A stretch of DNA of 64,000 nucleotides from Macrostomum hystrix (lineage: Eukaryota > Animalia > Platyhelminthes), in the NCBI GenBank assembly GCA_950097015.1, contig CATNEN010000025.1, forward strand, positions 248,001-312,000, read 5' to 3'. This document shows, one piece after another, positions 11,987 to 64,000 of the stretch. The position numbers were made by a program, and so were the translations under genes. The notes under the pieces were generated by a model that was not told the DNA's origin, did not search any database, and saw only the letters and a list, made by a program, of their open reading frames with translations. Position 1 is the first letter of the stretch, and every line of letters begins with the position of its first letter.

Positions 11987-11994
11987 CTATACCA

Positions 11995-19933: not shown

Positions 19934-20316
19934 TAATATTGTAAATGATTCAAGAAGTTAAGTTTGGTATGTCTCACTAAAAAAATGCTTGGCTCAATTA
20001 TTAAGAATGAAACATTATTGCAATATATTATTTCTAGTCCAAATCAAGGCCTTGATAATGGTAGTGACTTTTTTCAGTCTTCTTATTATAAAGAACATAT
20101 TAGCAATTATGCACCAAATAAGAAAGGCATATTTCTTAAATTTTATTCCGATGAGATTGAAGTCTGCAACCCAATTGGTTCTGCCAAAACAAAACATAAA
20201 CTATGTGTTATCTATTATAATATCCTTAATTTCCCAGACCATCTTAATTCTTCATTAGATTTAACCTTTCTTTCAACAATATTTTATGAGTCAAGTGTTA
20301 AAATGATAGGCTTTAA

Positions 20317-22806
20317 CCTCTTCCAGTCTGTGCAGCTTTTAGTCTAACTCCATTCCAGTCGGATGGGTCGTTTTCGACCATAGACAAAATGTTATCGTAT
20401 AAAAGGTTCACACCCACTCCTGTCGGAAAGAGTTTTATTCTATGGTTTTTCAGCTCGTGGAAATGGCTTCATACAGACCAAAAAGACAGGCGATGCTAAC
20501 TGCCAATCGGAGGCTCGGTCTAGATTCAGCCACGGAATCCGATGACTCATCTGAGACAGACTTGACTGCCAGCACCGACTCTGACACTAAAGAAGAGGAA
20601 GAAGCGGAGATTCCTGGTTGGAATATTGTGTCTGAGGAGAATGACGCACGGCCAGACGGAGTTCCTGAATTTCTTGGAACTGCTGGTAGCAATCCGTCGT
20701 GGAATCTCCCAAGCGATGCTGACGGCAATGAACAGCAATTCATCAACAAGTACCTACCCGGTGAGATGTTTGACATGCTATGTGCGTGGACGAACGCCAG
20801 GGCATGGAAAGACTACGCAGGAGAAAACCCCAACCAATTGCCTCCAAGGGTTCTTCAATGGCGAGACTGCAACGAGAATGAGATCCGCAAAGTAGTTGGC
20901 ATCGCCCTCTACATGGGATTAAACAAGAAGCCAGAACTGAACAGCTACTGGTCAAAGGATGCTTTTTACCACTGCCCGTATCTGAATCACACATTCTCAC
21001 CTTCTCGTGACCGATTCAAGAGCGTCATGTGCTATCTGAGATTGTATGACTGCAACAACGAGATTCAGGATGACCCACTTTCAAAGATGCGTCCCTTTTT
21101 GTCTGAAGTGCAGCGCCTGTGCCAAGACAATTACATCCCTCGCCGCGAGATTTGCGTTGACGAGAGTTTGGTTCTGTACAAAGGACGTTTGAACTTCAAA
21201 CAGTACATTCCGTCCAAACGGAGTAGATACGGCATCAAGCTTTACTGCCTTTGCGAATCGAGCAGCGGCTACCTTTGGAACTTTGCTGTGCACTCCTCTC
21301 AAGAGGAAAATTCTAAGTTTGCCCAAGACCGGGGCTGTGATGGGCTGTCATTCAGCGAAAAGGTGGTCGCTGAATTAGCACGAGATCTGCTCAACTTTGG
21401 TAATCACATTTTTGTTGACAGCTGGTTCTGCTCTAATCGCTTGGCCACGTGGCTTCTGGAGCGGAGTACACTGCTCACGGGAACAACCAGAAAAGATCGC
21501 AGTATTCCAGCATTGCTACAGGAACAGAACATTCCGCCGACCTCTTCTGTGTTTGCAAGATGCGGAAACATTCTGGCTTGCAAGTTTGTTGACAGAAAGC
21601 AAAGCGGAAAGAAGACGGTTTACATGATTGACACAGATGGTGTAGCAGGCTGCACCAACAGCACACGCATTCGTCGCGGAGGTATTGAGGAGGTCATCCG
21701 GAAGCCTCGGTGCATGGCGCTGTACTCGACGTTCATGGGAGGCGTTGATCGCATGGACGGTGGCCTGCAACCGTATCACCCAAACAGAAAGACCCAGAAA
21801 TGGTTTCACCGGCTGGCATTTCACCTTATCCTGCTGCTGCTTCGCAACTCCTGGATTGTCTACCGCAGTGCTGGTGGAACAAAGTGCTTTCTGGGCTTTT
21901 TAGAGCTCGCAATCAAGGATCTGATTGAAGGATCAGGGCCAGGCCGACGCTGCGTCACGGTTGCGCTGGACCAGGCACCCAACCCTGCCGGCCATCTTCC
22001 AGGCAAATCTGCACGAGTCGTTGGCCAGAGTCGGCTCAGGCGTCGATGCCGTGTGTGTCACAAGAAGACAATCTACATCTGCACTCAGTGCCCTGATTCT
22101 CCTGTGCTCTGCATGGGCCCGTGCTTTGCTCTCTTCCATGGCAGGGAGCCTTGACAAATTCACCTTTCGCGTGTTACAGTTTCCCTACAGTAATTTCCCA
22201 CAGTCAACACAAAAACGGGTGTTTTTATACATGTATTTGTACTTTCTGACATGCCAGCACGGTATAGTCCGATTCTAAAGTCGCAGCATTACGCTGCTTT
22301 CATTCTTGGTTTATTTCATCTGATTTTTAATATTCACGCTCCATGCACATTGCCTGTTCGCAGTCTTTTGTTAATAGGTCATTTCCAACGTACAAGTATC
22401 TGTTGATAAGATATTGAAATACGGGCTAAGTATTTTGCGTTCTGTTGCACCGTTACTTATCCTTACTACGAGCGTACTTTTCTATATGTCCTAATTCCTA
22501 ATTAGCGATTTAATTTCATTATAAAACTGGCGCTAAACAAAGCATTAAGCAGTGTTGCTTTACAAAGGTAGTTTCAAAATGGTTTCATTTGTAATCCATT
22601 GCAGAATTCGCAAAATATACAACATTTGGTCGCTTTGTCAGGCTGATAACTTCATTGAATTTAAGAAGATTTCTTCGTGGTCGTTTTCGACCCAGAGCCG
22701 ACTGGAACGGAAGTGTCCAGAAAGGCGAAAAAAGCAATAGACTAACATCTCCGACTGATAGGGAGAAGGCTAAGTGGCCGAAAACGACCTTCCCGACTGC
22801 TAACCG
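20317..22806 (+). mobile_element. piggyBac transposon
   Basis: TTAA at 20313-20316 and 22807-22810; imperfect TIRs sharing CAGTCGG..GGTCGTTTTCG; host frame restored on removal. Confidence 0.9.
20463..22154 (+). CDS. piggyBac transposase, uninterrupted ORF
   Basis: VDESL, YIPSKRSRYGIK, FVDSWF, MGGVDRMD catalytic motifs; C-terminal CRVC..CTQC..C..PCFALFH cysteine-rich domain. Confidence 0.92.
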   Translation: MASYRPKRQAMLTANRRLGLDSATESDDSSETDLTASTDSDTKEEEEAEIPGWNIVSEENDARPDGVPEFLGTAGSNPSWNLPSDADGNEQQFINKYLPGEMFDMLCAWTNARAWKDYAGENPNQLPPRVLQWRDCNENEIRKVVGIALYMGLNKKPELNSYWSKDAFYHCPYLNHTFSPSRDRFKSVMCYLRLYDCNNEIQDDPLSKMRPFLSEVQRLCQDNYIPRREICVDESLVLYKGRLNFKQYIPSKRSRYGIKLYCLCESSSGYLWNFAVHSSQEENSKFAQDRGCDGLSFSEKVVAELARDLLNFGNHIFVDSWFCSNRLATWLLERSTLLTGTTRKDRSIPALLQEQNIPPTSSVFARCGNILACKFVDRKQSGKKTVYMIDTDGVAGCTNSTRIRRGGIEEVIRKPRCMALYSTFMGGVDRMDGGLQPYHPNRKTQKWFHRLAFHLILLLLRNSWIVYRSAGGTKCFLGFLELAIKDLIEGSGPGRRCVTVALDQAPNPAGHLPGKSARVVGQSRLRRRCRVCHKKTIYICTQCPDSPVLCMGPCFALFHGREP

Positions 22807-35430: not shown

Positions 35431-36290
35431 ATGGCATCAGCTTCAAAGCAAGACCTCAAACCAGCAATGCGTGGTGTCATTCGCTTCTGGATCGACAGCG
35501 GACGCACATATGCGGCTGACATGCACGCAGAGCTTGTTGCGACATATGGAGAGGCGTGCCAAGCGAACCGACTGTCCGACGGTGGGTACGCGAGTTTAAA
35601 GAGGACCGTACCTCCCTTGACGACATAGCACCTGGCCTATCTGGCTCCACGCCGGCGCAGGTGCGCGCCCGTCTGCAAAGCGTTCTCGCTGTTGAAGCTG
35701 CTGTAAAAGCTGCGCCTAAGAGCTCACTTCGCAGGCTTTCTGCCACTGTTGGCCTTTCAAATCCATATGTGCACGAGATTCTCAAGACCGATCTTGGGCT
35801 GTCCCGCCTCTTCTTTCGATGGATTCCCCGCATCCTCACGCCAGAGCAGAAGAGTCGACGTGTCGAGGTTGCGCACGCGCTGCAAGCTGCCTACACTCTC
35901 GAGGGTCAGCATTTCCTTGACAAGATCATAACGTGCGACGAGACGTGGCTGCCCTTTTTGAGTCGGCTGGCAAGCAGAAAGACGCTGAGTGGTGTGTGCG
36001 AGGCTCAAACTCGCCAACGAAGCCTCGGCAGACGTGGACAAAGAAGATCATGATCTCTCTCTTCTTCGATGGCCAAGGTCCCCTGCTGGTCGACTTTCTG
36101 CAGGATGGCAAGACCATCAACTCAGTGCACTACCAGGAACAGCTTGAGCGCCTCAAGGTGGCTGTTATTGCGAATCGACGCGGCACGTGGCGAAGCGGTC
36201 GTGCGCTTCTCCATGACAACGCTCGCCCACATACCGCCATGGCAACCATCGCAAAGCTCAACGAGATCGGGCTCGACGTGCTGGACCACG
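35431..36290 (+). pseudogene. mariner transposase pseudogene, 3' truncated
   Basis: TVRRWVREFK, RWIPRILT, ITCDETW, LLHDNARPHTA; stop at 35626-35628, frameshift near 35950, breaks at LDH before YSPDL. Confidence 0.85.
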
Positions 36291-41100: not shown

Positions 41101-41123
41101 CACATGTGCGCGCTTTATACGCT
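41101..41123. other. Half recombination-like site: spacer CACATGTG + arm CGCGCTTTATACGCT
   Basis: Same arm as the 47370-47407 site; inverted-repeat homology stops exactly at this spacer. Confidence 0.6.
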
Positions 41124-43175
41124 GCAGTAACACAGTCTAATGAATTCAATCAGCCCTCCCTCCAAGGCCTGTGCAAGTTTTCTCTGCGTGTTTTCTCTCT
41201 GTCCCGGCCCCCTTTATCTGCCCCACGGTGTTTTTGACTCACTATTTAAATATTTAAATATATTAAATACTATAAATATTGTATATATAAAATCTTAAAT
41301 GTAGCAGGCAGACAGACAGGCGGGCAGGCAGGGCGAATCACTCAAATTTAATGTTCCGACACTGAGGGCAGCCGCCGTCTCTTCCGTGCCACCGGTCTAC
41401 CGTGCAGGACTGCGTCGGCTCGTTGGGTGCTCGCCGCCACCTCACCACTTCCACCAGCCAGGCTGCTGATGAGTCCCTGGGTCGGCGGCCTAACTATGGG
41501 TCGCATCTCTTCGGCACCTGATGGCACCACAAACCGGCGGACAATGTCGCGGCTGCGAATCACCGCGCCCATCTCCGTGGCCATCTGCGCGTTGTGACCA
41601 TAGTTAAACCGGATGACAGCTGCAGATGTGCCGTGCGCTCTGGCAAACACATCTAGCTGCTCCGGCTCCATCATGAGCACTACGGCACAGAGGGTGCGAC
41701 GCCAGTGCGTGGCCACATAGTGCCGACCCAGTACTCGCTGCCCGCCTGCGCTGATCATGCGGCTCATTGCCGACTGGCTGTACACGCCGCCGAACACATC
41801 TATGAAGACCGTCGGCGACTCCGGTTGCTCGATGCCGCGAGCAGCAAGCGACGGCAAGATGTATTCGTCGTGCAGGCGCAGCAAGGCCTCGCAGAATAGA
41901 TCCGGCAGTACCATCCTGGCTGGATCGCCGGAGTGTCCGACCTTGTGCGGCACTTCACGCAGCGGCAGGACGAGGTGCGAGTGCCCAGCCAGATCGGCAG
42001 CGGACAGCGCGCTCTCCCAATCTGCACTTTGCGTGTGTTGGCGGAAAAGCTGTTTTTGGTCGGCCGACGCGTTTCGCAGAACCGAACTGTCGACCAGGTG
42101 TCGCCGTCTTAAGTATATCCACGGCAGAAGTCGCAGTGGCTGCTCGACGCTGCAGTAGAAAAGCATCTCCTGCACTATCCGCCGCAGACATACCATCCGG
42201 CGACTGAAGGCGCCATCATCTGCTTCGCCGTTGTCTTTGGTGTCATCAGCGATGCCATTAGCGACCACACCTGCTGCCTGCATGCCCCATTCGCCGTCGA
42301 CTGGCAGTGAAGACCAGCTGTGTCTTTGGAGCATGATGAAAAAGCGGTCTCGACGGGCGAACACGGCATCAACCTCGTCCACGTTGACGTAGGTGTCCAT
42401 GAAGGCCACCTGCCGCTCATTGTGGCCAAGCTTGTAGACGGCTTGTATAGTATAAATGTGGTTGCGTTTACTTCTAGTAGATAGCAGCACGAAACCAAAT
42501 AGAACTAACTGTCATTAATGCAGCTGCTGTGCAGCTAGCTCACCTGCTGGATGGCGCGGACGTTGCCGAACTCGCCGCGAGCCTGCTGCACCACGCTGCT
42601 AAGGCGGGCGATGAGAGCCTGCTCAGCCGCCAGCGGGTTGTTGGCCTTCTGCGCCAACTGCAGTCTCCAGCAGACTCCACTGCAGACAAGGTCGCCGTCC
42701 TCAATATCAGCAGTAGCAGTAGCAGCAGCATCTGCGCGGGCGGCGTCAGCCGAGGGGGAGTCGATGCTGCAGAACAGCTCGGCCTCGCGCAAGCCAATGG
42801 CGGCCATGATGGCATTGGCGCCTCGCAGGCCCCTTACGCGCAGCCAGCCCTCCATGCAGCGACAGATGCTGACCAACTCCTGGCACTTTCGCGCCGCTGT
42901 CGACTGAGCCAGCTGCATGGCGTCACTGACTGTTTCGGCGCTGAAGCAGTCCTGCACCCTGTCCGGCTGCAGCAGCAGGTCTGCAAGCGAGATGCCCGCT
43001 CGCTGCCAGGTTCGCAGAAGCGTCGCGCTCACCGACTTACTTATGTCGCGCCAACGCTGCTGGTGGCACAAGTTGGCCGCAATCCTGGCCCGCGATGGGT
43101 CCCTCCACCACAGCTCCCGCAGGCGTTCCACCGTCGCGGAGATGCTGGGCCGGTCACCCAACGGCTGCAGCAGCT
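41101..43175. repeat. Left arm of ~2-kb inverted repeat (partner 45623-47392)
   Basis: Reverse-complement near-identity with 45623-47392; identical translated ORFs on opposite strands. Confidence 0.95.
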
Positions 43176-44083
43176 TCTGATCGGCTGTCGACGCTTCCTG
43201 CTGCAGTTCTGCTCCGAAGATGGACAATCGAAGCCGGTCGAATTCGGCATTAGCCAGCCTTCTCTTTGCAGCAGTCCACTTTGCTGCAGCTGCTCGACGC
43301 TGCCTCGGCGGGGTAGCTGCCAGCTTCACTAGCGGCCTCTGTGCAGCTGACAGCACAGCCGATGACGTGCTGGGACGACAAAGTGCTGCCTTGGTGGCCT
43401 GCACCGCCAACTGCAGACAGGCAGCCGAATAGGAAGACTCTGCTGCCACCGTCTGGACCGTCGGCAGCGTCCGCATTCTGATGCTGGTTCCGGGCAGCAG
43501 CTCCTGCAAGCCGACATCGTAGTCTCCATCCTCGTCATCGTCAGCGACTACGGGGGCCTCCTGTGAGGACATCAGCAGCAGCGGCGCAGTCGGGTCAAAT
43601 AGGCGTCGCCGGACGGCTGGACGGCTGGCTGACGACAGCCGAGCACTGGCCGCTGACTGTCGACCGTCAACGGACGGCGCGGCGATGCTGTAGAGCTCGG
43701 CCAACAGAGACCCACCCTCGTATTCAGCTGGTTCTGCCTCTGAAGGCAGCTGCGGAGGCGGTGGTGGCATCTGCTGGACAACTGTGCTGCCTTGCTGTCC
43801 TACGCAGCACCTTGCCGCAGGCTGGGCACGCGTGTACATGCTTAGTTTTTGCTGAGCTGCGCGTGTGGGTGCTGCACGTCAGGCAGAGCCAGACCATCTG
43901 GGCACGCTGCTTGGCTGACGCCGCTGCCCAAGATGCCTCGGACGGCCGCACCTTGACTGGTGCATCCTCGAGTCGGAATTGGCGCACAGCCTCCTCCGCG
44001 TGCCTCCTCAGGAAGTGGCGTTTCGGGTGCGTCTGCGGTCTGCCGTCGCCACAGAAGATGCAGCACGACTCGTTGTCTGTCAT
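41348..44083 (-). CDS. Zinc-finger / tyrosine recombinase fusion gene, one intron (donor 42543), probable frameshift near 43760
   Basis: N-terminal CIFC..H..H, CLTC..H..C, CPAC..HxC fingers; helical middle; catalytic exon with EQPLR, HKVG, VFID, ATHWRR, RAHGTS, FNY in YR R-K-(H)xxR-H-Y order. Confidence 0.7.
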
Positions 44084-44353
44084 AGCTATTGTTATTACAA
44101 ATTGATGCAGTGCCATATAGGTGTATGAACTGAATTCAGTATGCATGCTCAATCAACACATGCTATATACAGTCCGTTGTGCGTGCACAATGCCTAAATA
44201 AATATATGTATATGCCCCTATATCCCATTATGGAATACACTATTTTAAGTGTTGTGCGAGCACATTGTCCCGTACTGTTGTCATCGCTGCTGCATTTATA
44301 TTCGATTGAGTGCTGCGTTGAGCACATAAATAACTTATTTTTCTGTTGTCCCT

Positions 44354-44401: not shown

Positions 44402-45183
44402 CCGGCTGTAAAAAATTATAAGCCTCTGAATCATTGATAAATTTTAAAAACATAATTTTTCATTTGCAATGTAGTACAATCAGCGTGTGTGCCAATCCGT
44501 GCCCTGCACTATATACCACAGATTCTATATTATATAGGTAATATAGAATCTGTGCTATATACTACATTTGTTTACGCTTTAGCAAACCCCTCGAAAAGCT
44601 CAGACATTCGATTTTCCAGTGAACAGCACACCCACCCCCTCCAACTCGATCTTCCTCCCTCAAAAGCAGTGCCGAGCCAGCATCAGACCTGCAGATGGAA
44701 AGTGAGACGACTTCGATCGTCTTTAGTCTATGGTCACAGGGGTGAAATTATCGATTGGTTGAAGCAGACACACTGCTTCTCTTTTTCAAGGCAGAGCAGT
44801 GGCCCTTCCACACCCTTTTACCATAGACTATGAATTTAGAGACAGGGCCGCCCCTTCGATTTCGAAGGTTTAAAGAAAGGGTGGCAAGCCAAGTAGCAGT
44901 CTTTTAGTTTTAGCCCGGCCCAACTGCTCGATCGAACTGCAGCTTACAGTCAAATATAATTCAGAGATTCATCCACAATTCGAATCAACAGTCAGCCTTC
45001 TATTTGCTTGGACTATATTAAAACAGGCTACAGATATAATATCGACAGAGAGCCACAGGATCTATTATTATGTCAACAGCGAGCATTACGATCTAATATA
45101 TTTCTACGCAGCTCAGAACTGCATTACACTTACAGAGATTACAAATATATTATTATTATAGAGAACTGCATATTATATATACA

Positions 45184-45300
45184 AAGACTAATTAAAGGGC
45201 CTAATATATATAAAGACTAATTAAAGGGCCTATTATATATACAAATACTAATTGCAGGGCCTATTATATATACTAAGACTAATTAAAGGGCCTATTATAT
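45184..45300. repeat. About four copies of a ~30-bp AT-rich unit (AAGACTAATTAAAGGGCCTATTATATAT)
   Basis: Direct reading. Confidence 0.8.
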
Positions 45301-45622: not shown

Positions 45623-47145
45623 AGCTGCTGCAGCCGTTGGGTGACCGGCCCAGCATCTCCGCAACGGTGGAACGCCTGCGGGAGCTGTGGTGGAGGGACC
45701 CATCGCGGGCCAGGATTGCGGCCAACTTGTGCCACCAGCAGCGTTGGCGCGACATAAGTAAGTCGGTGGGCGCGACGCTTCTGCGAACCTGGCAGCGAGC
45801 GGGCATCTCGCTTGCAGACCTGCTGCTGCAGCCGGACAGGGTGCAGGACTGCTTCAGCGCCGAAACAGTCAGTGACGCCATGCAGCTGGCTCAGTCGACA
45901 GCGGCGCGAAAGTGTCAGGAGTTGGTCAGCATCTGTCGCTGCATGGAGGGCTGGCTGCGCGTAAGGGGCCTGCGAGGCGCCAATGCCATCATGGCCGCCA
46001 TTGGCTTGCGCGAGGCCGAGCTGTTCTGCAGCATCGACTCCCCCTCGGCTGACGCCGCCCGCGCAGATGCTGCTGCTACTGCTACTGCTGATATTGAGGA
46101 CGGCGACCTTGTCTGCAGTGGAGTCTGCTGGAGACTGCAGTTGGCGCAGAAGGCCAACAACCCGCTGGCGGCTGAGCAGGCTCTCATCGCCCGCCTTAGC
46201 AGCGTGGTGCAGCAGGCTCGCGGCGAGTTCGGCAACGTCCGCGCCATCCAGCAGGTGAGCTAGCTGCACAGCAGCTGCATTAATGACAGTTAGTTCTATT
46301 TGGTTTCGTGCTGCTATCTACTAGAAGTAAACGCAACCACATTTATACTATGCAAGCCGTCTACAAGCTTGGCCACAATGAGCGGCAGGTGGCCTTCATG
46401 GACACCTACGTCAACGTGGACGAGGTTGATGCCGTGTTCGCCCGTTTTCCGCCAACACACGCAAAGTGCAGATTGGGAGAGCGCGCTGTCCGCTGCCGAT
46501 CTGGCTGGGCACTCGCACCTCGTCCTGCCGCTGCGTGAAGTGCCGCACAAGGTCGGACACTCCGGCGATCCAGCCAGGATGGTACTGCCGGATCTATTCT
46601 GCGAGGCCTTGCTGCGCCTGCACGACGAATACATCTTGCCGTCGCTTGCTGCTCGCGGCATCGAGCAACCGGAGTCGCCGACGGTCTTCATAGATGTGTT
46701 CGGCGGCGTGTACAGCCAGTCGGCAATGAGCCGCATGATCAGCGCAGGCGGGCAGCGAGTACTGGGTCGGCACTATGTGGCCACGCACTGGCGTCGCACC
46801 CTCTGTGCCGTAGTGCTCATGATGGAGCCGGAGCAGCTAGATGTGTTTGCCAGAGCGCACGGCACATCTGCAGCTGTCATTAGGTTCAACTATGGTCACA
46901 ACGCGCAGATGGCCACGGAGATGGGCGCGGTGATTCGCAGCCGCGACATTATCCGCCGGTTTGTGGTGCCATCAGGTGCCGAAGAGATGCGACCCATAGT
47001 TAGGCCGCCGACCCAGGGCCTCATCAGCAGCCTGGCTGGTGGAAGTGGTGAGGTGGCGGCGAGCACCCAACGAGCCGACGCAGTCCTGCACGGTAGACCG
47101 GTGGCACGGAAGAGACGGCGGCTGCCCTCAGTGTCGGAACATTAA
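45623..47145 (+). pseudogene. Partial inverted copy of the YR gene lacking the zinc fingers and first catalytic Arg
   Basis: Starts mid-gene; 305-bp deletion is frameshifting and removes EQPLR. Confidence 0.85.
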
Positions 47146-47392
47146 ATTTGAGTGATTCGCCCTGCCTGCCCGCCTGTCTGTCTGCCTGCTACATTTAAGA
47201 TTTTATATATACAATATTTATAGTATTTAATATATTTAAATATTTAAATAGTGAGTCAAAAACACCGTGGGGCAGATAAAGGGGGCCGGGACAGAGAGAA
47301 AACACGCAGAGAAAACTTGCACAGGCCTTGGAGGGAGGGCTGATTGAATTCATTAGACTGTGTTACTGCAGCGTATAAAGCGCGCACATATG
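45623..47392. repeat. Right arm of the inverted repeat, with a 305-bp deletion at 46445
   Basis: Equals reverse complement of 41101-43175 minus 42048-42352; a few SNPs. Confidence 0.95.
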
Positions 47393-47407
47393 CGCGCTTT
47401 ATACGCT
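47370..47407. other. Palindromic recombination-like site, 15-bp arms, 8-bp spacer CACATATG
   Basis: AGCGTATAAAGCGCG-CACATATG-CGCGCTTTATACGCT. Confidence 0.7.
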
Positions 47408-47609: not shown

Positions 47610-47725
47610 GTACAGTTCATAGTGCGCGCACAATACTTAAAAAATATAAGGATTGTTGTTCTAAAATTAGAGCAGACATGCCTTATATATATTTTTAGGG
47701 AATGTGCGCGCACTACAGACTGTAC
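47610..47725. repeat. 116-bp hairpin module (GTACAGTTCATAGTGCGCGCACA ... TGTGCGCGCACTACAGACTGTAC)
   Basis: 23-bp inverted arms with 3 mismatches; near copy at 52903-53038; TA|CAGT ends compatible with a Tc1-type MITE. Confidence 0.8.
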
Positions 47726-48571: not shown

Positions 48572-51500
48572 CTATCTAACTTGTTGGAGAGCAGCAACAG
48601 CAACAACAACAACTATTTGTTGGCGGTGAGGGATTAAAAAGTTTAATGGAGCCGGTACAGAAAAAGAAAAAGCCACGGAGTGGCGCGCGGTGTCCAGGCC
48701 GTCAAACATGAAGTCATTACCGCCGAAGCGCTTAATGACCGGGCAGAATACGCGCTCCTGGCCCAAGTGGCGCTCGACGGCGGTGGTCTTGCCGACTCCC
48801 GACGGCCCATACAGATAGACAACGCCCGACTGGTGGCGAAGGGCTGTGCAGACAGCCTCTCGGAGCGGGCACGAGTTCCGGTTGTCGGCAGCCTCGGTGG
48901 AGCATGCGGAACAGCCGGCGAGCTGCTCCCTGCGAATCCGGCGCTGGCGCTGCACATCTCTGAAAACCCCCAGCAACGTGGCGCGCATCTGCTGGTGGGC
49001 CAACAAGACGCCGTCAGTCTGGTCGGGCAGGTTGGCAGTCAGCGGGTAGGACAGCGCCCACCGAGTCGCTTGCACCAGCATGCTGCACTGCGTGGCGCCG
49101 ATCCCGATCAGCAGCGGGTAGCCGTCGTGCTGCGTCAGGCTCCGCAGCACACTGTCTGGCGAACGGACGCCGCACAGCGTCAGGGTGGTCCGGTCGGGCA
49201 CCACAAAGCAGCGTCCCTCGTCTCGGCTAGGCAGCAGGCTGAACAGCAGCTCGTATAGATGCCAGCCGGCCGCGTTGGTCTCCAGGCGCACGAAGCCGGA
49301 CAGAGTGCGGTGTGGCCGATACTCGCTATGCTGCTGCTGTTGGTGTTGCTCCATCTCGTCGACGGAGAGCGGGTCAGCGACTAGCCGCCGGTCGCAGAAT
49401 TCATCCATGCCGACGCAGAGGCCCGGGCTGGACGCCAGGACGAGCTCGACACAGTGTGCCTCCAGAGCCTCGCCCAGATATACCTTGGCACGACCCGTTT
49501 ATGTAGGCAGCATGGAAACAGTGGATGCCAGCTGGTTATACGAGGGTCACTCAGAAAGTCTTTAGCCTGAACAAGAAAACAGCAACATATGAAATAAAAA
49601 ACCATTACAACTGCTCGAAGTACTCTCCCCCCGCATTGATACAGGCTTGTATCCTGTGGAACCAGCTGTCGAAGCACTGCCGCCAATCCTCATCCCGGAG
49701 CTCCCCGATGACGTCTTTGAACTCATTCACAGCTTCTTCCGGCGAATAAAAAATCTGGCCCTTTAATATCTCCTTGCACTTCAGGAATAAAAAAAAGTCG
49801 CACGGTGCCAGGTCTGGACTGTATACGCAGGGTGAGTCATCAGCTGGACACCACAGTCGGCCAGAAACTCGAGAGTTTGAGCTGCCGTGTGCGCACTGGC
49901 ATTGTCGTGGTGCAGAAGCACCCCACGCATTCCACACCTTGGGCGCCTCTGGCTCACAGCAGAAAAAACTTTGGGCAGGCAAACCGTTGTGTACCAGTCA
50001 GCGGTGACTGTCAGGCGATCTTCCAGTGAAACGGAAGCCACATGTCCAGTGCGCATGAAGAAGCAGGCCACCATCTGCTTGCCGGCACTCCGGTTGCGTC
50101 GAAACTTGGTTGGGCTGTCCTCGTCTCTGAAGGTCCACATGGATGACTGGCGCTTGTTTTCGGGGTCGTATTGATAAATCCAGGTCTCATCTCCCGTGAG
50201 GATGTCCCAGATACGCCGGCTGGTCCCAGATTCGAATTTCTGCAGCATAAATCGGCACCAAGCCACCCGGGTGTCCCTCTGCTCGTCCGACAGCTGATGG
50301 GGGATCCACCGGGAAGCCAGCTTCCGCACTCCGAGGTGTTCGTGCAGAATGGTGTGCACACTCCCCGATCCAATGCCCATCTCCTGCTGGATCTGCTGGT
50401 AGGTCACTCGCCGGTCAGCGTCAATCATGCTGGACACAGCGCAGATATTTTCTGGGGTCACTGCGTCGCAGGGTCTCCCGGATCGATGCTCATCTTCGAG
50501 GCTTTCTCGACCTCGGCGAAACTCAGCGAACCAGTTTTTGACGGTTGCGTATGAAGGACACAGATGAGCGAAAACGTCTTGTAAAGTTTGAAATGAATCG
50601 GCCGGCGACTTGCCTTGCTTGAAATGCAAGTACATCATAGCTCTGAAGTCACGATTTTCCAGCTTCATTGTGCAATTGAACGGCGCAAGGGGTGAACTGA
50701 CTTTGGCTCACTGCAGTGGACTCAAAAGTAACTGCTTCTGTTTGAAAATGTAGCTATAAGACTTTAAAAAGGTGGTCTTTACCATAGACAAATTTCATGC
50801 TTCTGCGTCTCGTGGATCATACTCAGGCTAAAGACTTTCTGAGTGACCCTCGTATGATTCAAAGCTTAAGAACAAAGCAAGTGACTCACCGACGAAGCGC
50901 ACGTTGTCGATGTGGAAGACGTGCAAATAGCGGCGCCCGGTCAGAATCCCGCTGTCCTCTGGCAGTCGCTCCGCAGGAGCAGCACCGGTCATTGCGAGCG
51001 GCCGGCTGCCGGAGCGCGTCACCGTGAACTGCTGCTGTGCTGCTGCCGCATTAAGCAGCGGGTTTTGGCCCAGCCGTCGCACGCCTCGGCCGCCTCGTTG
51101 TCCTCTGGCGCCGCCGACCGCGCTCCTGCTCGCCTCGCTGTCCCCCTGCTGTTGCTGCAGGAAGTGCATATACTGTGCCGCAGACGCCGGCGGACTGTAG
51201 CTGAATGCCATCAGCGAGGGAGGACGCTCGAGCTGCACCTGCTCTTGTTGCTGCAGCGGCTGCGGTGTCATTATGCGCCACCACTCCTGGCCGACAGGGA
51301 CGGACTGGCTGGCCTCATTCATAGCGGCCACCACCGCTGCTGCGAATGCCGCTGTGCCAGGCGACACCACGTAGGCCGTCGTCTCATCTTCCGGACGCTG
51401 AGACGGTGTGGTCTTGGCGACTGCAAGTCGTCGGCCATCGGGCTGCGAGTCTGGCACCATGGCGCCCACAATGGAGCAGTCGGCAGCAGCAGCAACAGCA

Positions 51501-52552
51501 GGAGCAGTCGTTTCGAGCCGCTGAAAACGGAACCTCCGCCTCCCTGGCTGCCGTTGTTGGTCGGCCGCGACTTGAGGCGGTTTCGGCACCGTGCTGGCGA
51601 CCTCCTCCATTTCCGCATCAGCGCCCGACGGTGGGGGATCTGCAGCGACTGACAGCGCAACGGTGGACGCCTCGTAGTCCAGCAGTGCCTGCAGAGCATC
51701 GCGGTCGTCGCTATTAATCGCCTCCTGCTCGTTAGGCTCCGATGGCTCCGCCTTTGGGCCGCTACTGCGAGTTGCCGCTGTCGGCCTGCTTTTATCGTGG
51801 CGCTCGTCGTCGACGTCCTCAATCTCGATGACGACGGGGCTGCGAGGCTGTAGAGCTGCCCTGGACCTGTCGGGCGCGTCAGACGCCGCACCGTCGCTGT
51901 CGTCACTGTTGCCAGCAGCCTGTCGCCCGACGTGCCTGATCACTGCCGGCGACGACCATCTGCTGGTGGCCTTCTTGGCACTCCGGTGCTGATCTCCGAG
52001 CCAAGCCAGCAGGCTCCCTTTTGGCGCAGTCGAGGCTGAGGCTGCCATCGCGTGGAAGATTGGTGCGTAGACGGTCGTGTTATTTGCCGATGTACTGGCA
52101 GGTGGTGGCTGCTGATTGCCTGCTGCCGCTGGCTGGGATACGACGCGGATGGACACAATCGACGCGTTCAGCAGGTCCACACTGCCTGATGCTGTGGACA
52201 TCTGGTCATTGGCAGGCTGCTGCTCTTCGGTGTTCAGGCGCATGACACCGCTCAGGGGCAGCAGGCTGAAGTCGTCAGCGTCACTGCTGATGTTAGCCAC
52301 CGCTGCTGTCTGCACTGGACGGCACCGCTTTGGGCCTGGCGTAGATTCTGCAGCTGCTGCTGCTGCCGCTGCATTGACAATGCGACGTTGAGAGGGAGCG
52401 CTCTTTCTTTTTCGCTGTGATGGTGGCTGGTGAGTTGATGACGCTACCGGCCCGGCGGAGTTGCTATCTTGGGCAGCTCTCTCAAACTCGTCCAGCGCGG
52501 CCGCAATTCGTTCATCGTCGCTGTCGCAGCCGGTTGAAAAATTGAACGACAT
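48572..52552 (-). pseudogene. Large spliced gene: low-complexity N-terminus + possible Rep-like domain + SF3-like P-loop ATPase, disrupted
   Basis: Exon 1 52552-50890 (GTGAGT donor), exon 2 from 49531; frameshift near 49485; VVYLYGPSGVGKTT followed by FMFDGLD as in Rep SF3 helicases; Walker B not found (truncated near 48660). Confidence 0.55.
49541..50852 (-). mobile_element. mariner (DD34D) transposon, 1312 bp, inserted in a 44-nt intron
   Basis: 30-bp perfect TIR CGAGGGTCACTCAGAAAGTCTTTAGCCTGA, TA TSD; transposase 50668-49605 with TGDETW, HHDNAS, YSPDLAPCDF and one 2-bp frameshift near 49825. Confidence 0.95.
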
Positions 52553-52770: not shown

Positions 52771-52804
52771 ATCAATATGCGCGCACATGTGCGCGCATAT
52801 TGAT
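52771..52804. other. Perfect 34-bp palindrome with 13-8-13 layout
   Basis: ATCAATATGCGCG-CACATGTG-CGCGCATATTGAT. Confidence 0.75.
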
Positions 52805-52902: not shown

Positions 52903-53038
52903 GTACAGTTCATAGTGCGCGCACATTACTTAAAAATATATAAGGACTTGCCTGCTATTCTTAGGTAGATAAGCAGCTCGAATCGAATCGTCTTATATAT
53001 ATATTTCTTAGGGATTGTGCGCGCACCACGAACTGTAC
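52903..53038. repeat. Second hairpin module
   Basis: Left arm identical to 47610-47632; right arm TGTGCGCGCACCACGAACTGTAC. Confidence 0.8.
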
Positions 53039-53201: not shown

Positions 53202-53620
53202 CTACTGCTCCATTCGATATTGGCGACTCCGGAGCAACTCTCGCAGTCTTGCCCTTTGCTGCACGCCGCGCCAGTAGTCCAGCCCGTGTAGAATGTGCTG
53301 CAGCTCCAAACAGGTGTCCTCCACCAGGCCTAGCAGCTGGCCAAGTCGAAAGCCTCGTTCTCTGTTAGGCAGGTCACCTCCAGGATGGTCTCGTAGCCCG
53401 CAGCTGTCTGGTGTTGTAGCAGCCAGTCCAGGAGGCTCTTCAGCAGGGTGTGTAGCTGGGTGGCATTCAGCTCAGCATTCGGGCAGTGGCGCTGCAGGCA
53501 GGTCAGCTGCTCCAGTCGTCCTCGGTGCGCCAGGAACGGGGCCAGGCAGGCGATGTCGCATCTGGCCAGGAGTGCCACGATGGCCGGCGAGCCGAACAGC
53601 GCCACAGGATGAGCATTCAT
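53202..53620 (-). pseudogene. ~138-aa GC-rich gene with one frameshift near 53340; possibly death-fold-like
   Basis: MNAHPV..LAPFL..LLDWLLQHQTAAGYETILEV..AFDL / GQLLGLVEDTCLELQ..LDYWRGVQQRARLRELLRS; codon usage like neighbouring YR and helicase genes. Confidence 0.45.
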
Positions 53621-54002: not shown

Positions 54003-54505
54003 CGGGCTCTTTTGCTGCATAAGAAAGCATTAAGGGTTGAGTCGGGCTCTTTTGCTGCATAAGAAAGCATTAAGGGTTGAGTCGGGCTCTTTTGCTGCAT
54101 AAGAAAGCATTAAGGGTTGAGTCGGGCTCTTTTGCTGCATAAGAAAACATTAAGGGTTGAGTCGGGCTCTTTTGCTGCATAAGAAAGCATTAAGGGTTGA
54201 GTCGGGCTCTTTTGCTGCATAAGAAAACATTAAGGGTTGAGTCGGGCTCTTTTGCTGCATAAGAAAACATTAAGGGTTGAGTCGGGCTCTTTTGCTGCAT
54301 AAGAAAGCATTAAGGGTTGAGTCGGGCTCTTTTGCTGCATAAGAAAGCATTAAGGGTTGAGTCGGGCTCTTTTGCTGCATAAGAAAGCATTAAGGGTTGA
54401 GTCGGGCTCTTTTGCTGCATAAGAAAGCATTAAGGGTTGAGTCGGGCTCTTTTGCTGCATAAGAAAACATTAAGGGTTGAGTCGGGCTCTTTTGCTGCAT
54501 AAGAA
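54003..54505. repeat. 40-bp tandem repeat, ~12.6 copies
   Basis: Unit TAAGGGTTGAGTCGGGCTCTTTTGCTGCATAAGAAAGCAT with one G/A variant site. Confidence 0.97.
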
Positions 54506-56362: not shown

Positions 56363-57592
56363 TCAGTAGTAGGGGTTAGCAGTTAGCAGCCCCCACATTG
56401 TTTTCCTTGTTGAAAACAACCCTTTGTTCACTGTAGAGATAAGAGAAATGGCGGGCCTATCTCTTTGCGCTGCGTACGGCTGCAGTGGAGTGGAGAGGCC
56501 GATGGAGGGTGGGTGAGGTGTGAGGTGGGAGTTGGAGATAAGGGCCCCAGTCCTGGCAGACTGGCTGCTTTTCAGGTAGTGCAAGTACTCTCGCACAAAT
56601 GAGTTGTTTTCGGGTGTGAATGCACCGTGGCACATGGTTTCCCCGCCTTTCTTTAGAGCTAGCTGGCTGAGGTTGAAGCTCTGGAACTCGAAGGGGCAGG
56701 TGTGATGATTCCCGTTGAAGGCTCGGTGGCTCACGAAAGCCAGCATGATGAACTTAGGGAGTTTTCCGTGGGTAAAGCCTTCAATGTTCTTCGACTGGAT
56801 TCTCTGGGGCAGAATAAAGTTCTGCATTTCGGCTCGCTCCATAGGATAGAGCGCATTCTGGTTGGTCAGTCCCTGATCATGGGCTAGGCTGATGTGAGAA
56901 GCCACCTTGACTCGGCGGAGATGCAGGATGCAGTGGGAGATTTCCATGCGGTAGGCTGTGTTGTTTGTGACCGGGGTTCTGATGGCAAATGCAGCGTCGC
57001 TGGGCACCAACTTGATGTGCAGGTGCAGGTTGTTCAGCAGGAACATGGGGCACTGGAAGATGTCGCTGAACAACGGTCCGACATACTCCACCCAGCGGGA
57101 CAGCCTGTGGCTCTCCATGTGCGCCTCTGCAGCGGAGTCAGGTTGCAGGAATCCAGCGGGGTAGAACTTCAGCTGCTGGGCGTCTGAGGAGCTCATGAGA
57201 GCTTTGAAATAGGCATGGTAGGGATAGAGCTGGTCTCCCCCGGACACAACTCGCTGGTTAATGCTCACAATGACATCAGAGAAGAGCGTAGACAGGACGA
57301 AGTTTTCAGGGTGCACATCACTGTCTCGGCGCTCTGTCAGCTCTCCTTCAGCGTTCAGAACATTCTCCCTCAGCAAGCCCCCATCCAGTCGGACTAGGCG
57401 GCAGCGAATGTACAGGAAAGAATTCAATAGTTCGGTGTATTCGTCAGCTGATGGGTGGCAATCGAATTCGATGGGTGCATTTGCAGCAATTGAGTTCACG
57501 GGGTGAATATCGACATAGGAGGATTTGTCAATGGCAGTCTGCAGCGCAGGAGCCTTGAACAAATCGAGCCTTGGGTTGAATCCATAAGCCAT
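56363..57592 (-). pseudogene. Polinton major capsid protein (PY/hexon-like), C-terminally truncated and reading into the terminus
   Basis: LDLF..LQTAI..YVDIHP..PIEF..EY..L..VHPENFVLSTLFSDV..YPYHAY..GPLFSDIF..GKLPKFIMLAFVSHRAFNG..PFEFQ pattern. Confidence 0.88.
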
Positions 57593-57656
57593 GTCTACGA
57601 CAAAGAGTCCAGCACGCGCTTCACCGTTTTCCTGCTGACTTTTCGCTTCCTCTTGC

Positions 57657-57983
57657 TTACCGTTTTGCCCTTTGCTTTGCTCTCTCCTTTCTTAGGTTTC
57701 TTTCTACCTGCATTGTTCCGTTTCCTTGATTTTTTCCCCTTCTTGCCATTTTGGCGAGAGGTGTCTTCTTTATTATCTTTTTCCTAGAAACTTTAGCATT
57801 CAACTGTCTTCTTTTGCTAACGCTTTTGCCAGCCGAGGCCAACTGAGATGCATGTGCTGGTGAAGTTGCTGGAGGAGGTTGATATGTCATGATCCCTGGA
57901 AAACTTCCGCACCCATAGGGCGCAGATTTATCGCTTCCATTTCGAGTTCCAGAGTACTGCCGGATCATCTGTTGATAGTTCAT
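57657..57983 (-). CDS. Small basic protein upstream of MCP (Polinton core/PM-like)
   Basis: MNYQQMIRQYSG..GCGSFPG..YQ then K/R-rich tail; syntenic position. Confidence 0.45.
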   Translation of the reverse strand: MNYQQMIRQYSGTRNGSDKSAPYGCGSFPGIMTYQPPPATSPAHASQLASAGKSVSKRRQLNAKVSRKKIIKKTPLAKMARRGKNQGNGTMQVERNLRKERAKQRAKR

Positions 57984-58041
57984 CGAATAAGTTTCTCCCG
58001 GATCTGAATCGTGAGCAAAACAGGACTGCAGCTCTGAGCAG

Positions 58042-58375
58042 TCAGAGGGGACCAAATGTATCCCGCAGTTGAATTCGAATGCTGTGTAGAAAATTTGCTT
58101 TCTGGATTGGGAAGAAAAGTGTTTTCTTAAACACTTTGCTGAAGTAGCAGCCCCATTCAGCATTAGAACTGATGTTCACAGTTCGCAGCAGGGAGTCCCA
58201 GTTGCAGCTTGTTGACTCAACAAGGCTGCAGCGCACATTGACCAGGTTGGTGGGCGGACAGCCGATGCAACAGCTTGACACTTGGCACCCAGGTGGGATT
58301 TTGATTGACTGGTTTCCAAATCCCAACCACTGCGAGCCCCGAGGCGGCACGAAATTGGTACCAGACCGGATCGCG
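58042..58375 (-). pseudogene. Polinton minor capsid protein (penton) C-terminal part
   Basis: WLGF..VNVRCSLVE..SLLRTVNI..FFPIQK..IRIQLRDTFGP motif; flanked by stops. Confidence 0.65.
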
Positions 58376-58447
58376 GCTTAATTCACTGTCCTGCAATGGT
58401 ATGCGCCCAGATGGCGACGACGAAGCCACACTGATTTCCTTGTCGGA

Positions 58448-58855
58448 CTAGGCGATGAGTAGCGTCTTCCGGTCCTCCTCCTCCTCACACGTTCCTTCAA
58501 CAGAAGCCAGCTCAGCCTTGACATCGATGCCCACCTCACGTATGACGTCTTGAGTGCCCAGCTCATATTCACCTTCTGGTGATTTTCCTTGTAGCTCCGA
58601 GTCAATCCAGCTCGCTTTTTTCCATAGCTCATTCCATAGACGGGGTGACAGGGCCACGGAATTGCGCCTTAGGTATTCTTCCGTACAATCTTCGGGAAGA
58701 CGCTTGAGCCAGATGGTTCCTCGGCTAAACATCGCGATCTTCTCAAAACCCAGCTTGATCGTGACGTTGTGTCGGTTGACCGCGGAGTGCACAAGTTGTT
58801 GCTTCACTTGCTTTAGCTTTTCCCATTGATACGCGTTGAGGTTGAATCCGGGCAC
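58448..58855 (-). CDS. 135-aa protein with two PC4/KELP-like ssDNA-binding motifs
   Basis: GFNLNAYQWEKLKQ and VALSPRLWNELWKKASWIDSEL resemble the PC4 GISLxxxQWxxL motif. Confidence 0.5.
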   Translation of the reverse strand: MPGFNLNAYQWEKLKQVKQQLVHSAVNRHNVTIKLGFEKIAMFSRGTIWLKRLPEDCTEEYLRRNSVALSPRLWNELWKKASWIDSELQGKSPEGEYELGTQDVIREVGIDVKAELASVEGTCEEEEDRKTLLIA

Positions 58856-61800
58856 GCCTGGCTTCAGTTCTCATTCACTAGAAAAGAAGCGCCGAATCGC
58901 TATAAAATGATGACCTTATAATCTTGCACTTGCACTTTAAAGCCGTCGCAGAGATCCATGCTCAACAATCTGATACAGAAACAAAGGGTTGTTTTCAACA
59001 AGGAAAACAATGTGGGGGCTTCGCCCCCACACCCCCAGCAACTCATAGTCACTGCATGTGTGCATGCAGGCGCACTCTCCGCAGCGCGATTGGTTATCTT
59101 CCACCATTTTCTGCTTTCCCGCTTGCCACAGCCACAACCATATCACCATAGAATCATAAAATCTCTTACCTGGCTCGGCCTGCGCTCCACTGCAGGTGGG
59201 GCACAACTCTCTTACCAGGGCCTGATTGGCTCAGCCATCCCAGCAGCATAGACCCAACCCCTACTATCAATTTGCATTGTCGCTTATCTCCTCAGTACAA
59301 GTGCGGCAGAGTTGCATAAAGTCATACTACAGCTCTATCTCTTCAGACTCAAGATTCAGAACTATACTCACAAAATATCAATGTTTTCCGGATATACACA
59401 TTTTATATATTATATATTATATATATTATATTATATTTTAAATCAATATATGAGCTAGATAGTATATGCAGACATATAGATACATACCGTTTACCTTGAC
59501 TGCTCACCAATTCCAAACTACATTGCATGCCATGGAATTTCCACGGAATTTCCTGCTAACCCCTACTACTGTGATCGACTCAGCTGCGTACTCTAGTCCT
59601 CAGCTGCTGCTTCAAGCGTGCTTCGCAAATGACAGCGCGATTCACCAGTTTCTCAGTTCTGTCCGCGATTCTATCTCGCAGTGGAAGCCTTCACATTTTA
59701 GTTATAGAATGTTATTAGGAAGTTAGGAAGTTATAGACTTCCTAGAATTGCTAGAAAATTGCTATAATTTAACACCATGTTATTGCAAAACAAGGCTTGA
59801 TCAAAGCATTAATTTTTTCATTCTTTTAATTTTGTATTTTATAATATGTAATTTTGAGAATATCGTTTTGCAATGATATTCTCGATACTGAATTACGAAA
59901 AGGCATATTGAGAAAATATTGCGTGTACAATCGAGCATTGGTTATGCTAAGGCTCTTTCGTATTATTTCAAGCGGAAGCGAAAGATTAGATAAGATTACA
60001 CTCACGTTTCACTAGCGACTCGCTATAAACCCACTTTTTTTAACTCGTTCGCCACAAATGAAAAACTACTTTTCTTCTATATCTTGATGTATCTCTTATT
60101 CGCCACTAATTGTTTCAAGCAGCGATGTTACTTATAGCTTGGTCTGGTCGTTTAAAATAAACTTCGGCTTATAACGGGTTTATGAGCGGTTTATAAGCCC
60201 CTACGATAATTTATACGAAAGCTTTCGCCGTTTTAAAATTCGAATAGCCTCTATTGGACTTAATATTAATATTAATATATGACTTAATATTTGACGTAAC
60301 TACGGCCGGAAAAAGGAAATTAAAAAATTCTATGTAACTAACTTCATGATGTAAAGAAAAATTAAAGATTTATAGGCCTACGGCATCATGACCATTCTAA
60401 TCTTACTTTACTAGTAGTCTAGTTTTTTTGTAGCTACAGACCAATACTTGGTCGTATTAGTCTGTGTCTATCTATTAAAACTTAGTATTTTGAAATAGCC
60501 TAGGGTACTATGTATATTGCTTGCTTTTGAATAAAAAGTAAACCAGGAATACATGGGAATTGGGGATCTCCATTATAGCTGAGCTGTATTGCTAAGCTAA
60601 TAATAGCTAGCTGCTAGGGTTTATTTTTAGCTGGCCCCTAACTAGGCATATTCTTATGCAAGCATGTCTAGTTTACTTAATAAATTCCAATGAGAAAAGC
60701 CAAAATGACAATATTGGCTATTTATCTAGTTTGTAGGCCTGAATACAAAGCATAGGGTAATGTATCATCTACCGAACAGTGTATCTTCAAAACCGAACAA
60801 GAATTTTGACTCCTTCCTTGGTCTCGTGCAAGACAGAAACAAGCTATTGACCTATTGTGTTTCACAGAACAACTAATTTGAAAGTTGAAGAAATTATCTA
60901 CAAGCTGAGGCATAATGTGCAATGAAGCATTAAGAGGAAAGAAAGATATAGATATTTCAGTAGAATTTTTTATTGCAGAAGCATACTTTTTAACAACATT
61001 TTTTCAGTATGTACTTTAGACGAAGATTGTATGTGGTTGCTTGCTAATTAAATGACCATAAATGTAGTTATTTATAGAACATGAAAAATGCTTTCAAATG
61101 ACATAAATTATGATAGTTCACTCCTTAAAATAAGATTAAAACACTCACTCAAATTATAAAACCAAACATCAAATTCTCTGTTTGGTTTGAAGATACATGA
61201 AAATCATTGTTCGGTTTTAGATAAAAAGCAGGAATAACTTTTTTCTATTTGACAAAATAGCAAAAGCAGATACTTTTTAGAAAGATGTAACTGTTTTCTA
61301 TAACTTGGCTTTTGATTTATCATCATATCTTAAATAGAAAATCTGTAGCTTAAGTTTGAAGTTAAAAAAATACACATTCTTGTTTGGTTGATGATACATT
61401 ACCCTATAGTACTTATCATATTGATTCTTAAGCCCTTTTCTCTGACTGTGTATATTCTCTGACTTAGGCCTAACACAAGTGCCAAAGCTGCCAACAGTGC
61501 TCTCATGCTTTTCCTCCACAACACTTAGGGTTAGGCCTAGCACCAATCTCTAGGCCTAATACCAACTCATTCTCTCATCAAAAGCACAGAAGGGTCTACA
61601 CTAACATGTACCATATCCTTAAATACTGACCCCAACATCAATGTTATGCTCATACTATTTTGATTATTGCAAAAAGAGTTGGTAGGCCTAGTACCTAATC
61701 AAGTTTCCACAAACAGTAGGCCTATCAAACTGAAATAGGCTTTAAGTAGGCTCGGCTTCATGTTTTAACAAAGATATGAAAACATGTTGCATGAAACAAG

Positions 61801-62784: not shown

Positions 62785-64000
62785 ATGCCTGTACCAGAGG
62801 CTGAGCTCAAGCGGCTGGCGCCCACCATTGATGAAGCTCGGCGTGCAGCCTATGCTAGTCTGGTCTTCTTATTGGCTTGCCTGCTATTTGTGCCACTGTG
62901 GTGGCGCCTCACAACAGTTGAAAGGCAGCCCTTGCCAACTGATGAAATCAACAGGCTGTATTATAGACAGCCTGAGTTGCAGGTCTGTGTCCCAACTGTG
63001 TGATCTATGGCCTGACAGAGCTGAGAGAAGCTGATGTTACTGAGGGATTTTTGGGATTAAGGCAAGCTCATGTTAATGAGGGACCAGGGATAGGATTAAA
63101 TTGAGGATCTGGGGATGGGAGTAGCTCAAGGATCTGAGGATGGGAGTAGCTTAAGGATCTGAGGGTGGGAGTAGCTCAAGGATCTGAGGATGGGAGTAGC
63201 TCAAGGATCTGAGGATGGGAGTAGCTCAAGGATCTGAGGATGGGAGTAGCTCAAGGATCTAAGGATGGGAGTAGCTCAAGGATCTGGGGATGGGAGTAGC
63301 TCAAGGATCTGAGGATGGGAGTAGCTCAAGGATCTGGGGATGGGAGTAGCTTAAGGATCTGAGGATGGGAGTAGCTCAAGGATCTGAGGGTGGGAGTAGC
63401 TTAAGGATCTGGGGATGGGAGTAGCTCAAGGATCTGAGGGTGGGAGTAGCTTAAGGATCTGAGGGTGGGAGTAGCTCAAGGATCTGAGGGTGGGAGTAGC
63501 TCAAGGATCTGAGGGTGGGAGTAGCTCAAGGATCTGAGGGTGGGAGTAGCTCAAGGATCTGAGGGTGGGAGTAGCTCAATGTTTGATTGTGGGACCTTCA
63601 AAGGCATCGCTCGCACCTTTTTACAGGTGGACCTGCGCATCATTAGCTTCGACGCCTGGTTAGAGCCGTCCGACCTGGCGAATCTAGAGCGGCACCTGCT
63701 AGACCGTCTGGTGCCAGCCGGCCTGGACAAGCGGCGCCACGTCCACCTGCGCTACCGGGTGTCTGCCAGGCCCGCCACGCCGCAGGAGACGGAGCTGATG
63801 CGCTCGGCTGGCTCTCCAGCCGAACTTGAAGACGGCCTTCGCCTGACATCGTCGGGAAGCGGGATCGGTGGCGGAGTCGGAATGTCGCCGGGTTCAAGCG
63901 CTTCGACATCGGCTTCGGAGTCCACCCTGACAATACTGCTGCTGCCGAATTCGTCCAAACTGTTGGAGCCGCCGGCTTCTGTTGGCGGAGGTGGCGGCGT
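62785..64000 (+). CDS. PIGS: GPI transamidase component PIG-S, 5' part (exons 62785-62982 and 63627->64000)
   Basis: RRAAYASLVFLLACLLFVPLWWRLTTVERQPLP (PIG-S N-terminal TM, LWW.TT.YR..LP); phase-0 GT..AG intron; exon 2 open with YRVSARPAT and TILLLPNSSKLL. Confidence 0.85.
63111..63579. repeat. 25-bp G-rich minisatellite (~19 copies) in PIGS intron
   Basis: Unit GAGGATGGGAGTAGCTCAAGGATCT with variants. Confidence 0.97.

Follow-up and report, generated by a model that had tools for sequence, protein, structure and literature searches.

Organization of the helicase gene

The window analysed here, a 64,000-nt stretch of Macrostomum hystrix DNA (contig CATNEN010000025.1, positions 248,001 to 312,000), carries on its minus strand a split gene for a superfamily 3 (SF3) helicase related to the replication initiators (Reps) of circular Rep-encoding single-stranded (CRESS) DNA viruses, with palindromes on both sides and further genes nearby (Table 1). 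The original prediction of a spliced SF3 helicase gene of CRESS-Rep type is supported by the motifs of a Macrostomum lignano homologue (P0001), by Atlas hits and by family-level HHalign comparison. The long disordered N-terminus of about 550 amino acids predicted with it corresponds to the first exon, in which disorder-promoting residues make up 74.5% of the frame. The last ~60 codons of this exon are conserved relative to P0012, a natural homologue of 526 amino acids whose residues 381-446 match the exon end.

The same homologue bears on the splice junction, for which a 44-nt GT-AG intron followed by a 1-nt frameshift had been proposed. The 44-nt stretch exists, but its end does not appear to be a working acceptor, and residues 447-490 of P0012 match the frame at 49498 directly with 66% identity. 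When breaks are written as X, the 44-nt model aligns to P0012 with a 12-residue gap and a score of 185, compared with a gap of 1 and a score of 196 for the long-intron model. Because P0012 spans the exon junction without 12 extra residues, the intron is placed at ~80 nt rather than at 44 nt plus a frameshift. At the expected acceptor site, four public sequencing runs, all from one study and with depths that are not a measure of copy number, each show a single substitution relative to the window, and no indel is found there among the 12 of 63 gap rows listed. We infer from the sequence an intron of ~80 nt, and its splicing, with the acceptor broken in this copy. A second intron of 103 nt was rejected, as the segment it would excise has a GC content of 66% and aligns to P0012 with 66% identity, and so was separate re-initiation at an overlapping start and stop near 49,409, where P0012 reads through in one frame.

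A mariner transposon sits inside the intron, after the GT donor at 50889. Contigs of three of the four runs (X1, X2 and X3) span this site without the mariner, which is therefore a later insertion. Downstream, the open frame from 49498 carries the Walker A and FDGLD motifs that had been predicted, and likeness to relatives ends at 48671. Run contigs cease to match the window at 48666 and 48675, beyond which they extend by 446 and 208 unlike letters; this copy therefore carries a deletion, and the proposed truncation before Walker B, a motif that P0001 has, is confirmed.

Variation among copies indicates that the frames are under coding constraint. All four of the listed indels or skips in exon 1 are multiples of three, and 7 of the 11 substitutions listed for it fall at third codon positions (p=0.039; 309 further rows lie outside this list). 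In exon C of the neighbouring gene B/C, third positions account for 21 of 28 listed substitutions (p=8e-6; 693 further rows lie outside). The third-position bias and the frame-keeping length changes therefore point to constraint on both the exon 1 gene and gene B/C. As judged from sequence, the helicase gene is real and the copy in the window is broken by the mariner, by the damaged acceptor and by loss of the helicase C-terminus.

Helicase motifs

A near-length protein search returned a sole match among 1,482 candidates, the M. lignano protein Mlig013629g1 (P0001), which is 71% identical; P0003 is a second match from this species, and a search for proteins of greater length found none among 4,075 candidates. 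P0001 supplies Walker B, the B' lysine, the arginine finger and a motif C with His for Asn. The SF3 set of Walker A, Walker B, B' lysine and arginine finger lies within ~120 amino acids in P0001 and its relatives, and the window copy keeps Walker A alone. The motif C asparagine is His in P0001, P0002, P0003 and P0008 and Ser or Val in P0006 and P0013; P0005 has Asn one column off.

When the helicase part of P0001 is searched in Atlas, an unnamed cluster (0.97) is followed by two Cressdnaviricota Rep clusters (0.96 and 0.95). In Pfam, neither the window piece nor P0001 matches PPV_E1_C, large T or Parvo_NS1, P0006 does not match the E1 or large T models, and PPV_E1_C matches only the intact CRESS Reps described below, weakly (E 0.004). 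The CRESS half of the proposed CRESS/parvovirus likeness stands, and parvovirus NS1 is not the nearest match.

A Rep family without nicking residues

Searching 1.84 billion proteins with a profile returned 22 matches. Of these, 17 were read as a single family, whose members are for the most part fragmentary sequences taken from metagenomes and read assemblies. Set aside were three other Rep-like helicases (P0014, P0018 and P0019), a generic AAA protein (P0020) and an intact Rep (P0021), the last of which joins P0025-P0028 as a set of intact Reps on contigs of 2.3-2.7 kb. Two of these five match Gemini_AL1 (best E 2.9e-4). These five intact CRESS Reps are divergent as a group and have hardly any matches in Pfam or PDB. 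With the helicases removed, the pre-helicase part of the family profile matches the intact Reps at an HHalign probability of 93% (E 3.5e-7), the matching region at this family level comprising the motif III strand and helix plus the linker. Among single members compared with the Rep profile, four of nine score above all 200 shuffles (best E 1.1e-9).

In a joint alignment, the Tyr-x-x-Lys of HUH motif III is present in none of the six family members that cover the column, as against all five intact Reps, and the His-x-His of motif II in none of four members, as against four of the five. The stretch ETNAAGWHLYELL, put forward as a degenerate motif II, aligns instead to the helix after that motif; the region is indeed degenerate, as a trait of the whole family rather than as damage to this copy. 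The six members without the motif III Tyr are only 25-42% identical to the window piece and retain the surrounding pattern. Because such divergent members share the loss, the pattern and a new cluster of four cysteines, the nicking residues were lost family-wide and not by decay. Elements of that cluster recur as CxxC in 7 and Cx6C in 7 of the 13 proteins scanned, most of them fragments.

In a 16-row helicase tree, from which fragments without most of the helicase were omitted, a 100/100 branch separates the family and four intact Reps from four IMG/VR CRESS Reps. Scans of viral contigs (by protein and by pattern), metagenomes and genomes yielded no family member; the seven viral loci recovered are ordinary CRESS genomes with intact Reps and the five prokaryotic loci are weak P-loop matches. 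Among plasmids and phages nothing matched the intact Rep P0021, Rfam gave no match, and PDB sequence searches returned nothing informative. As a separate observation, the IMG/VR circular contigs L003-L007 (3.5-3.9 kb) carry near-identical Reps alongside quite different capsid-like open reading frames (ORFs) of ~600 amino acids.

Palindromes and neighbouring genes

A GCGCGCAC-type core is common to three related long palindromes and two short hairpins around the gene, and TGCGCGCA occurs 6 times against 1.4 expected, always beside the helicase gene. At 44517-44554, 45171-45300, 54003-54505 and 63087-63594 there are another near-perfect hairpin and 31-, 40- and 25-nt tandem arrays.

Table 1. Features of the helicase locus and its surroundings (window coordinates)
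Feature	Coordinates	Strand	Remarks
Exon 1	50890..52552	minus	554 codons, ATG at 52552; low-complexity, predicted disordered
Intron	49496..50889	minus	~80 nt without mariner; GT donor 50889; acceptor near 49,497 broken here
Mariner transposon	49541..50852	minus	1,312 nt, perfect 33-nt inverted ends, TA duplication, frameshifted transposase
Exon 2	48671..49495	minus	HUH-derived domain, helical linker, Cys cluster, first half of SF3 helicase
HUH motif II column	49283..49306	minus	His pair absent; joint alignment
HUH motif III column	49124..49147	minus	Catalytic Tyr and Lys absent; joint alignment
CxxC + Cx6C cluster	48848..48913	minus	Predicted zinc site before helicase; absent from intact Reps
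Walker A motif	48785..48808	minus	Read from sequence
Deletion junction	48666..48675	none	Walker B, B', motif C and arginine finger (~110 aa in P0001) gone
Long imperfect palindrome, upstream of gene	52903..53038	none	z -6.9; candidate origin or miniature inverted-repeat transposable element (MITE)
Perfect 34-nt palindrome	52771..52804	none	Shared GCGCGCAC core; z -5.5
Long imperfect palindrome, downstream of gene	47610..47725	none	73% like upstream one; z -10.5
Near-perfect hairpin	47370..47407	none	GCGCGCAC core; inverted duplication ends near centre
Third long palindrome	44168..44263	none	More diverged; upstream of genes A and B/C
Gene B/C	41348..43839	minus	~818 aa; in-frame 35-nt GT-AG intron 42509-42543; no family match
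Gene A	43724..44152	minus	Small Cys/His-rich ORF; weak zinc-ribbon matches only
Inverted partial duplicate of gene B/C	45623..47392	plus	99% identical, without 304 nt
Gene D	53202..53620	minus	ORF with frame break near 53338; link to element uncertain

The order of motifs in gene B/C recalls that of tyrosine recombinases, whose catalytic set is R...H-x-x-R...H/W...Y, a likeness that is not significant. HHalign places its best register over the HxxR/LGH region (probability 0.14%, E 0.41), Pfam and NCBIfam give no match, and gene C shows two weak matches among plasmids and phages. The inverted duplication pairs 41101-43175 with 45623-47392 and could have arisen by hairpin-primed copying.

The interval from 40.3 to 54 kb is mostly covered by all four runs, and the contigs of three runs leave the window sequence at 40279. 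No recognisable capsid was found by database match among the neighbouring genes, where hairpins are present. Further away, a 2.6-kb block at 56363-59020 lies between perfect 41-nt inverted repeats and holds a capsid-like ORF, Arg/Lys-rich ORFs and a weakly PC4-like ORF (E 0.093). Other presumed transposon remains occupy 11976-16110, 18613-19938, 20403-22154 and 35520-36053, with ORFs at 2.5-6.9 and 27-29.9 kb; by their motifs we take them to include a long interspersed nuclear element (LINE)-like reverse transcriptase ORF, Tc1/mariner-like and piggyBac-like transposases and EnSpm-like ORFs.

Interpretation and alternatives

The analysis establishes the Rep ancestry of the protein, both halves of which are homologous to a single group of intact CRESS Reps, the loss of the nicking residues across its family, the retention of the motor motifs in relatives and the three lesions of the window copy. 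The gene is probably a broken, spliced copy of a cressdnavirus-type Rep derivative whose intact protein would act as the origin-binding, ring-forming replicative helicase of a mobile virus-like element. Mobility is suggested by divergent variants in a single run, by neighbours that are rearranged and in part duplicated, by palindromes on both sides, and by the second M. lignano match, P0003. In the mechanism proposed, the dead HUH domain would bind the GCGCGCAC palindromes as an origin, the linker and the putative zinc site would build the helicase ring, and the disordered N-terminus might recruit host replication proteins; the helicase would then unwind the DNA for copying by host polymerase and primase without a Rep nick, in the manner of papillomavirus E1 and polyomavirus large T (PMC6668415), and the neighbouring gene B/C might, at a guess, integrate the element.

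Several results weigh against this interpretation. Compared with the Rep profile, the window's own piece does not stand out from shuffles, 10 of 200 of which reach its score, the HUH part by itself has an HHalign probability of 9%, and motif I was not recovered, the candidate strand in P0012 being equalled by 121 of 500 shuffles. No single member spans the whole protein, five members consist of the helicase only, and the helicase tree does not unite the family as a single clade (18% support among bootstrap trees). Most members have another residue in place of the motif C Asn, which makes ATPase activity uncertain. A structure model built on a 17-row alignment that includes the intact Reps has a predicted local distance difference test score (pLDDT) of 61, the single-sequence fold (pLDDT 34) being unusable, and Foldseek returned nothing at E<=0.001 from PDB or BFVD; CRESS Reps account for many of the 50 rows from BFVD, all at E>=0.1. 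On the supporting side, the N-terminal domain is covered by three of the 50 VIA rows of a fold search, two for RepB of pMV158 and one for SIRV1 ORF119 (Z 4.2-4.6), which we take to be HUH proteins, and the linker matches B19 NS1 (Z 5.1) and AAV2 Rep40 (Z 4.6) amid many unrelated helical bundles. These fold matches are weakly consistent with an HUH domain and lie below significance, and the structural support is partly circular because the intact Reps are in the alignment. A comparison of gene B/C with 34 prokaryotic integrases, made to test for a recombinase, was negative, as 118 of 300 shuffles reached its score. Neither element ends nor a target duplication, a circle or a link to a capsid were found on the short contigs. 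The palindromes may be MITEs, their TA-CAG ends presumably also fitting those of mariner type.

An unlikely alternative is a domesticated host gene, in which a captured Rep has lost nicking, gained introns and taken on a cellular DNA-binding or helicase role, the window copy being a pseudogene. Introns, coding constraint and the lack of an adjacent capsid agree with it, as do relatives on eukaryote-like contigs, where three matches (P0007, P0009 and P0010) stop in VS just past Walker B, suggesting an intron shared by relatives from other hosts. Variant copies, rearranged neighbours and palindromes argue the other way, and the relatives are sparse singletons; depth relative to unrelated repeat contigs varies by run (~460-610 versus 65-101 in X2, 7-13 versus 11-46 in X3/X4) and is a hint only. 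The intron itself, originally read as a sign of long residence in a nucleus, is no proof of this because free CRESS virus genomes are reported to carry intron-containing Rep genes (PMC6186406). A host ATPase of the AAA+/P-loop type unrelated to Reps would account for top Pfam matches to generic AAA families and for the generic AAA protein among the profile hits, and is highly improbable given the short SF3 motif spacing, the Atlas hits and homology that extends beyond the P-loop.

The helicase might instead be one module of a larger capsid-encoding virus, similar to Polintons/adintoviruses or adomaviruses, that includes the capsid-like ORF at 56.4-57.7 kb. That ORF resembles, as we presume, Polinton major capsid proteins, and together with the weak PC4 match it lies 4-6 kb away. 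Macrostomum adintovirus contigs are listed in the PMC11071296 supplement, and adomaviruses with CRESS-type Reps exist (PMC11071296). However, no database match confirms the capsid, the capsid-like block has its own inverted repeats and is set apart by the 40-nt tandem array, and the adomavirus CressRep sequences examined keep His-x-His and Tyr-x-x-Lys (PMC11071296), which makes this arrangement improbable. An ordinary endogenised CRESS Rep that works, or once worked, by rolling circle, with motifs decayed or supplied by a helper Rep, is less probable still. Its closest intact relatives are Reps on small contigs, hairpins are present, and the 2,710-nt circular genome of Cress2851 encodes a capsid beside a Rep that by eye has the same linker motif (PMC11071296); yet all six divergent members are without the Tyr while keeping the pattern and the new Cys cluster, which decay would not conserve.

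The reading of the gene as a Rep-derived, non-nicking replicative helicase points to an unannotated mobile element in Macrostomum. It is best read as the replicative helicase of an undescribed mobile virus-like element, one that has converged on papillomavirus E1 and polyomavirus large T. A wider proposal, made tentatively, is that in an undescribed class of invertebrate elements or viruses a cressdnavirus Rep has independently turned into an E1/large-T-like origin-binding helicase, with a dead nickase, a newly gained zinc site, a long disordered tail and introns, combined with a tyrosine-recombinase integrase and palindromic origins; if true, there would be a second route from rolling-circle single-stranded DNA viruses to double-stranded replication. 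A replicator with a dead HUH domain and an SF3 helicase has precedent (PMC6668415). In the scenario proposed for how papillomaviruses and polyomaviruses arose, the conversion of an HUH nickase into an origin binder is the decisive step, and the forces behind it are called obscure (PMC6668415). The family shows such a switch while still alignable to intact CRESS Reps, providing a before/after pair that can be compared residue by residue. No description of this helicase family was found in the literature searched, which took in few subscription journals and parts of supplements.

Comparison with known systems

The closest comparison is with the intact Reps P0021 and P0025-P0028, which resemble the Cress2851 Rep and share with the family a collinear HUH domain, DPF-type helical linker and SF3 helicase. 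Unlike the family, they keep all HUH motifs, have neither the Cys cluster nor the 550-residue N-terminus, and belong to genomes of ~2.7 kb. Papillomavirus E1 and polyomavirus large T have a long flexible N-terminus, and large T has a zinc site before the helicase. Their combination of an inactivated HUH domain with an SF3 helicase (PMC6668415) resembles the family in architecture only; the nearest kin of the window protein are CRESS Reps, whereas E1 and large T are derived through parvoviruses (PMC6668415), and no L1 or VP1 capsid is seen near the window gene. For parvovirus NS1 itself, there is no Pfam match and the one resemblance is a weak fold match of the linker.

The CressRep class of adomaviruses and xenomaviruses (PMC11071296; bioRxiv 341131) similarly has a CRESS-type Rep in a multi-gene animal DNA virus, but in the 7 entries examined of 22 places the His pair and the Tyr are kept where visible, and virion genes lie alongside in circles of 9-20 kb. 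The planarian PEVE/PIVE and other Rep-bearing invertebrate repeats (PMC3198968) share the character of a flatworm virus-like element with Rep or helicase genes and inverted repeats; the citing literature describes them as parvovirus NS1/E1-like, and they are set apart here by description rather than by sequence.

A Helitron, which pairs an active HUH Rep with an SF1 Pif1 helicase, differs on both counts, the helicase here being of SF3 type and the HUH residues absent. Polinton-like viruses with an SF3 helicase and a tyrosine recombinase may offer a parallel in this pairing, the recombinase in the window being unproven, and their helicases are D5-like or primase-fused rather than HUH-derived. 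In PMC11071296, Meld19810 likewise has a Yrec with an S2 helicase. By its defining features the family belongs to none of the CRESS Reps, NS1, E1 or large T, and constitutes a variant of the Rep/SF3 replicator.

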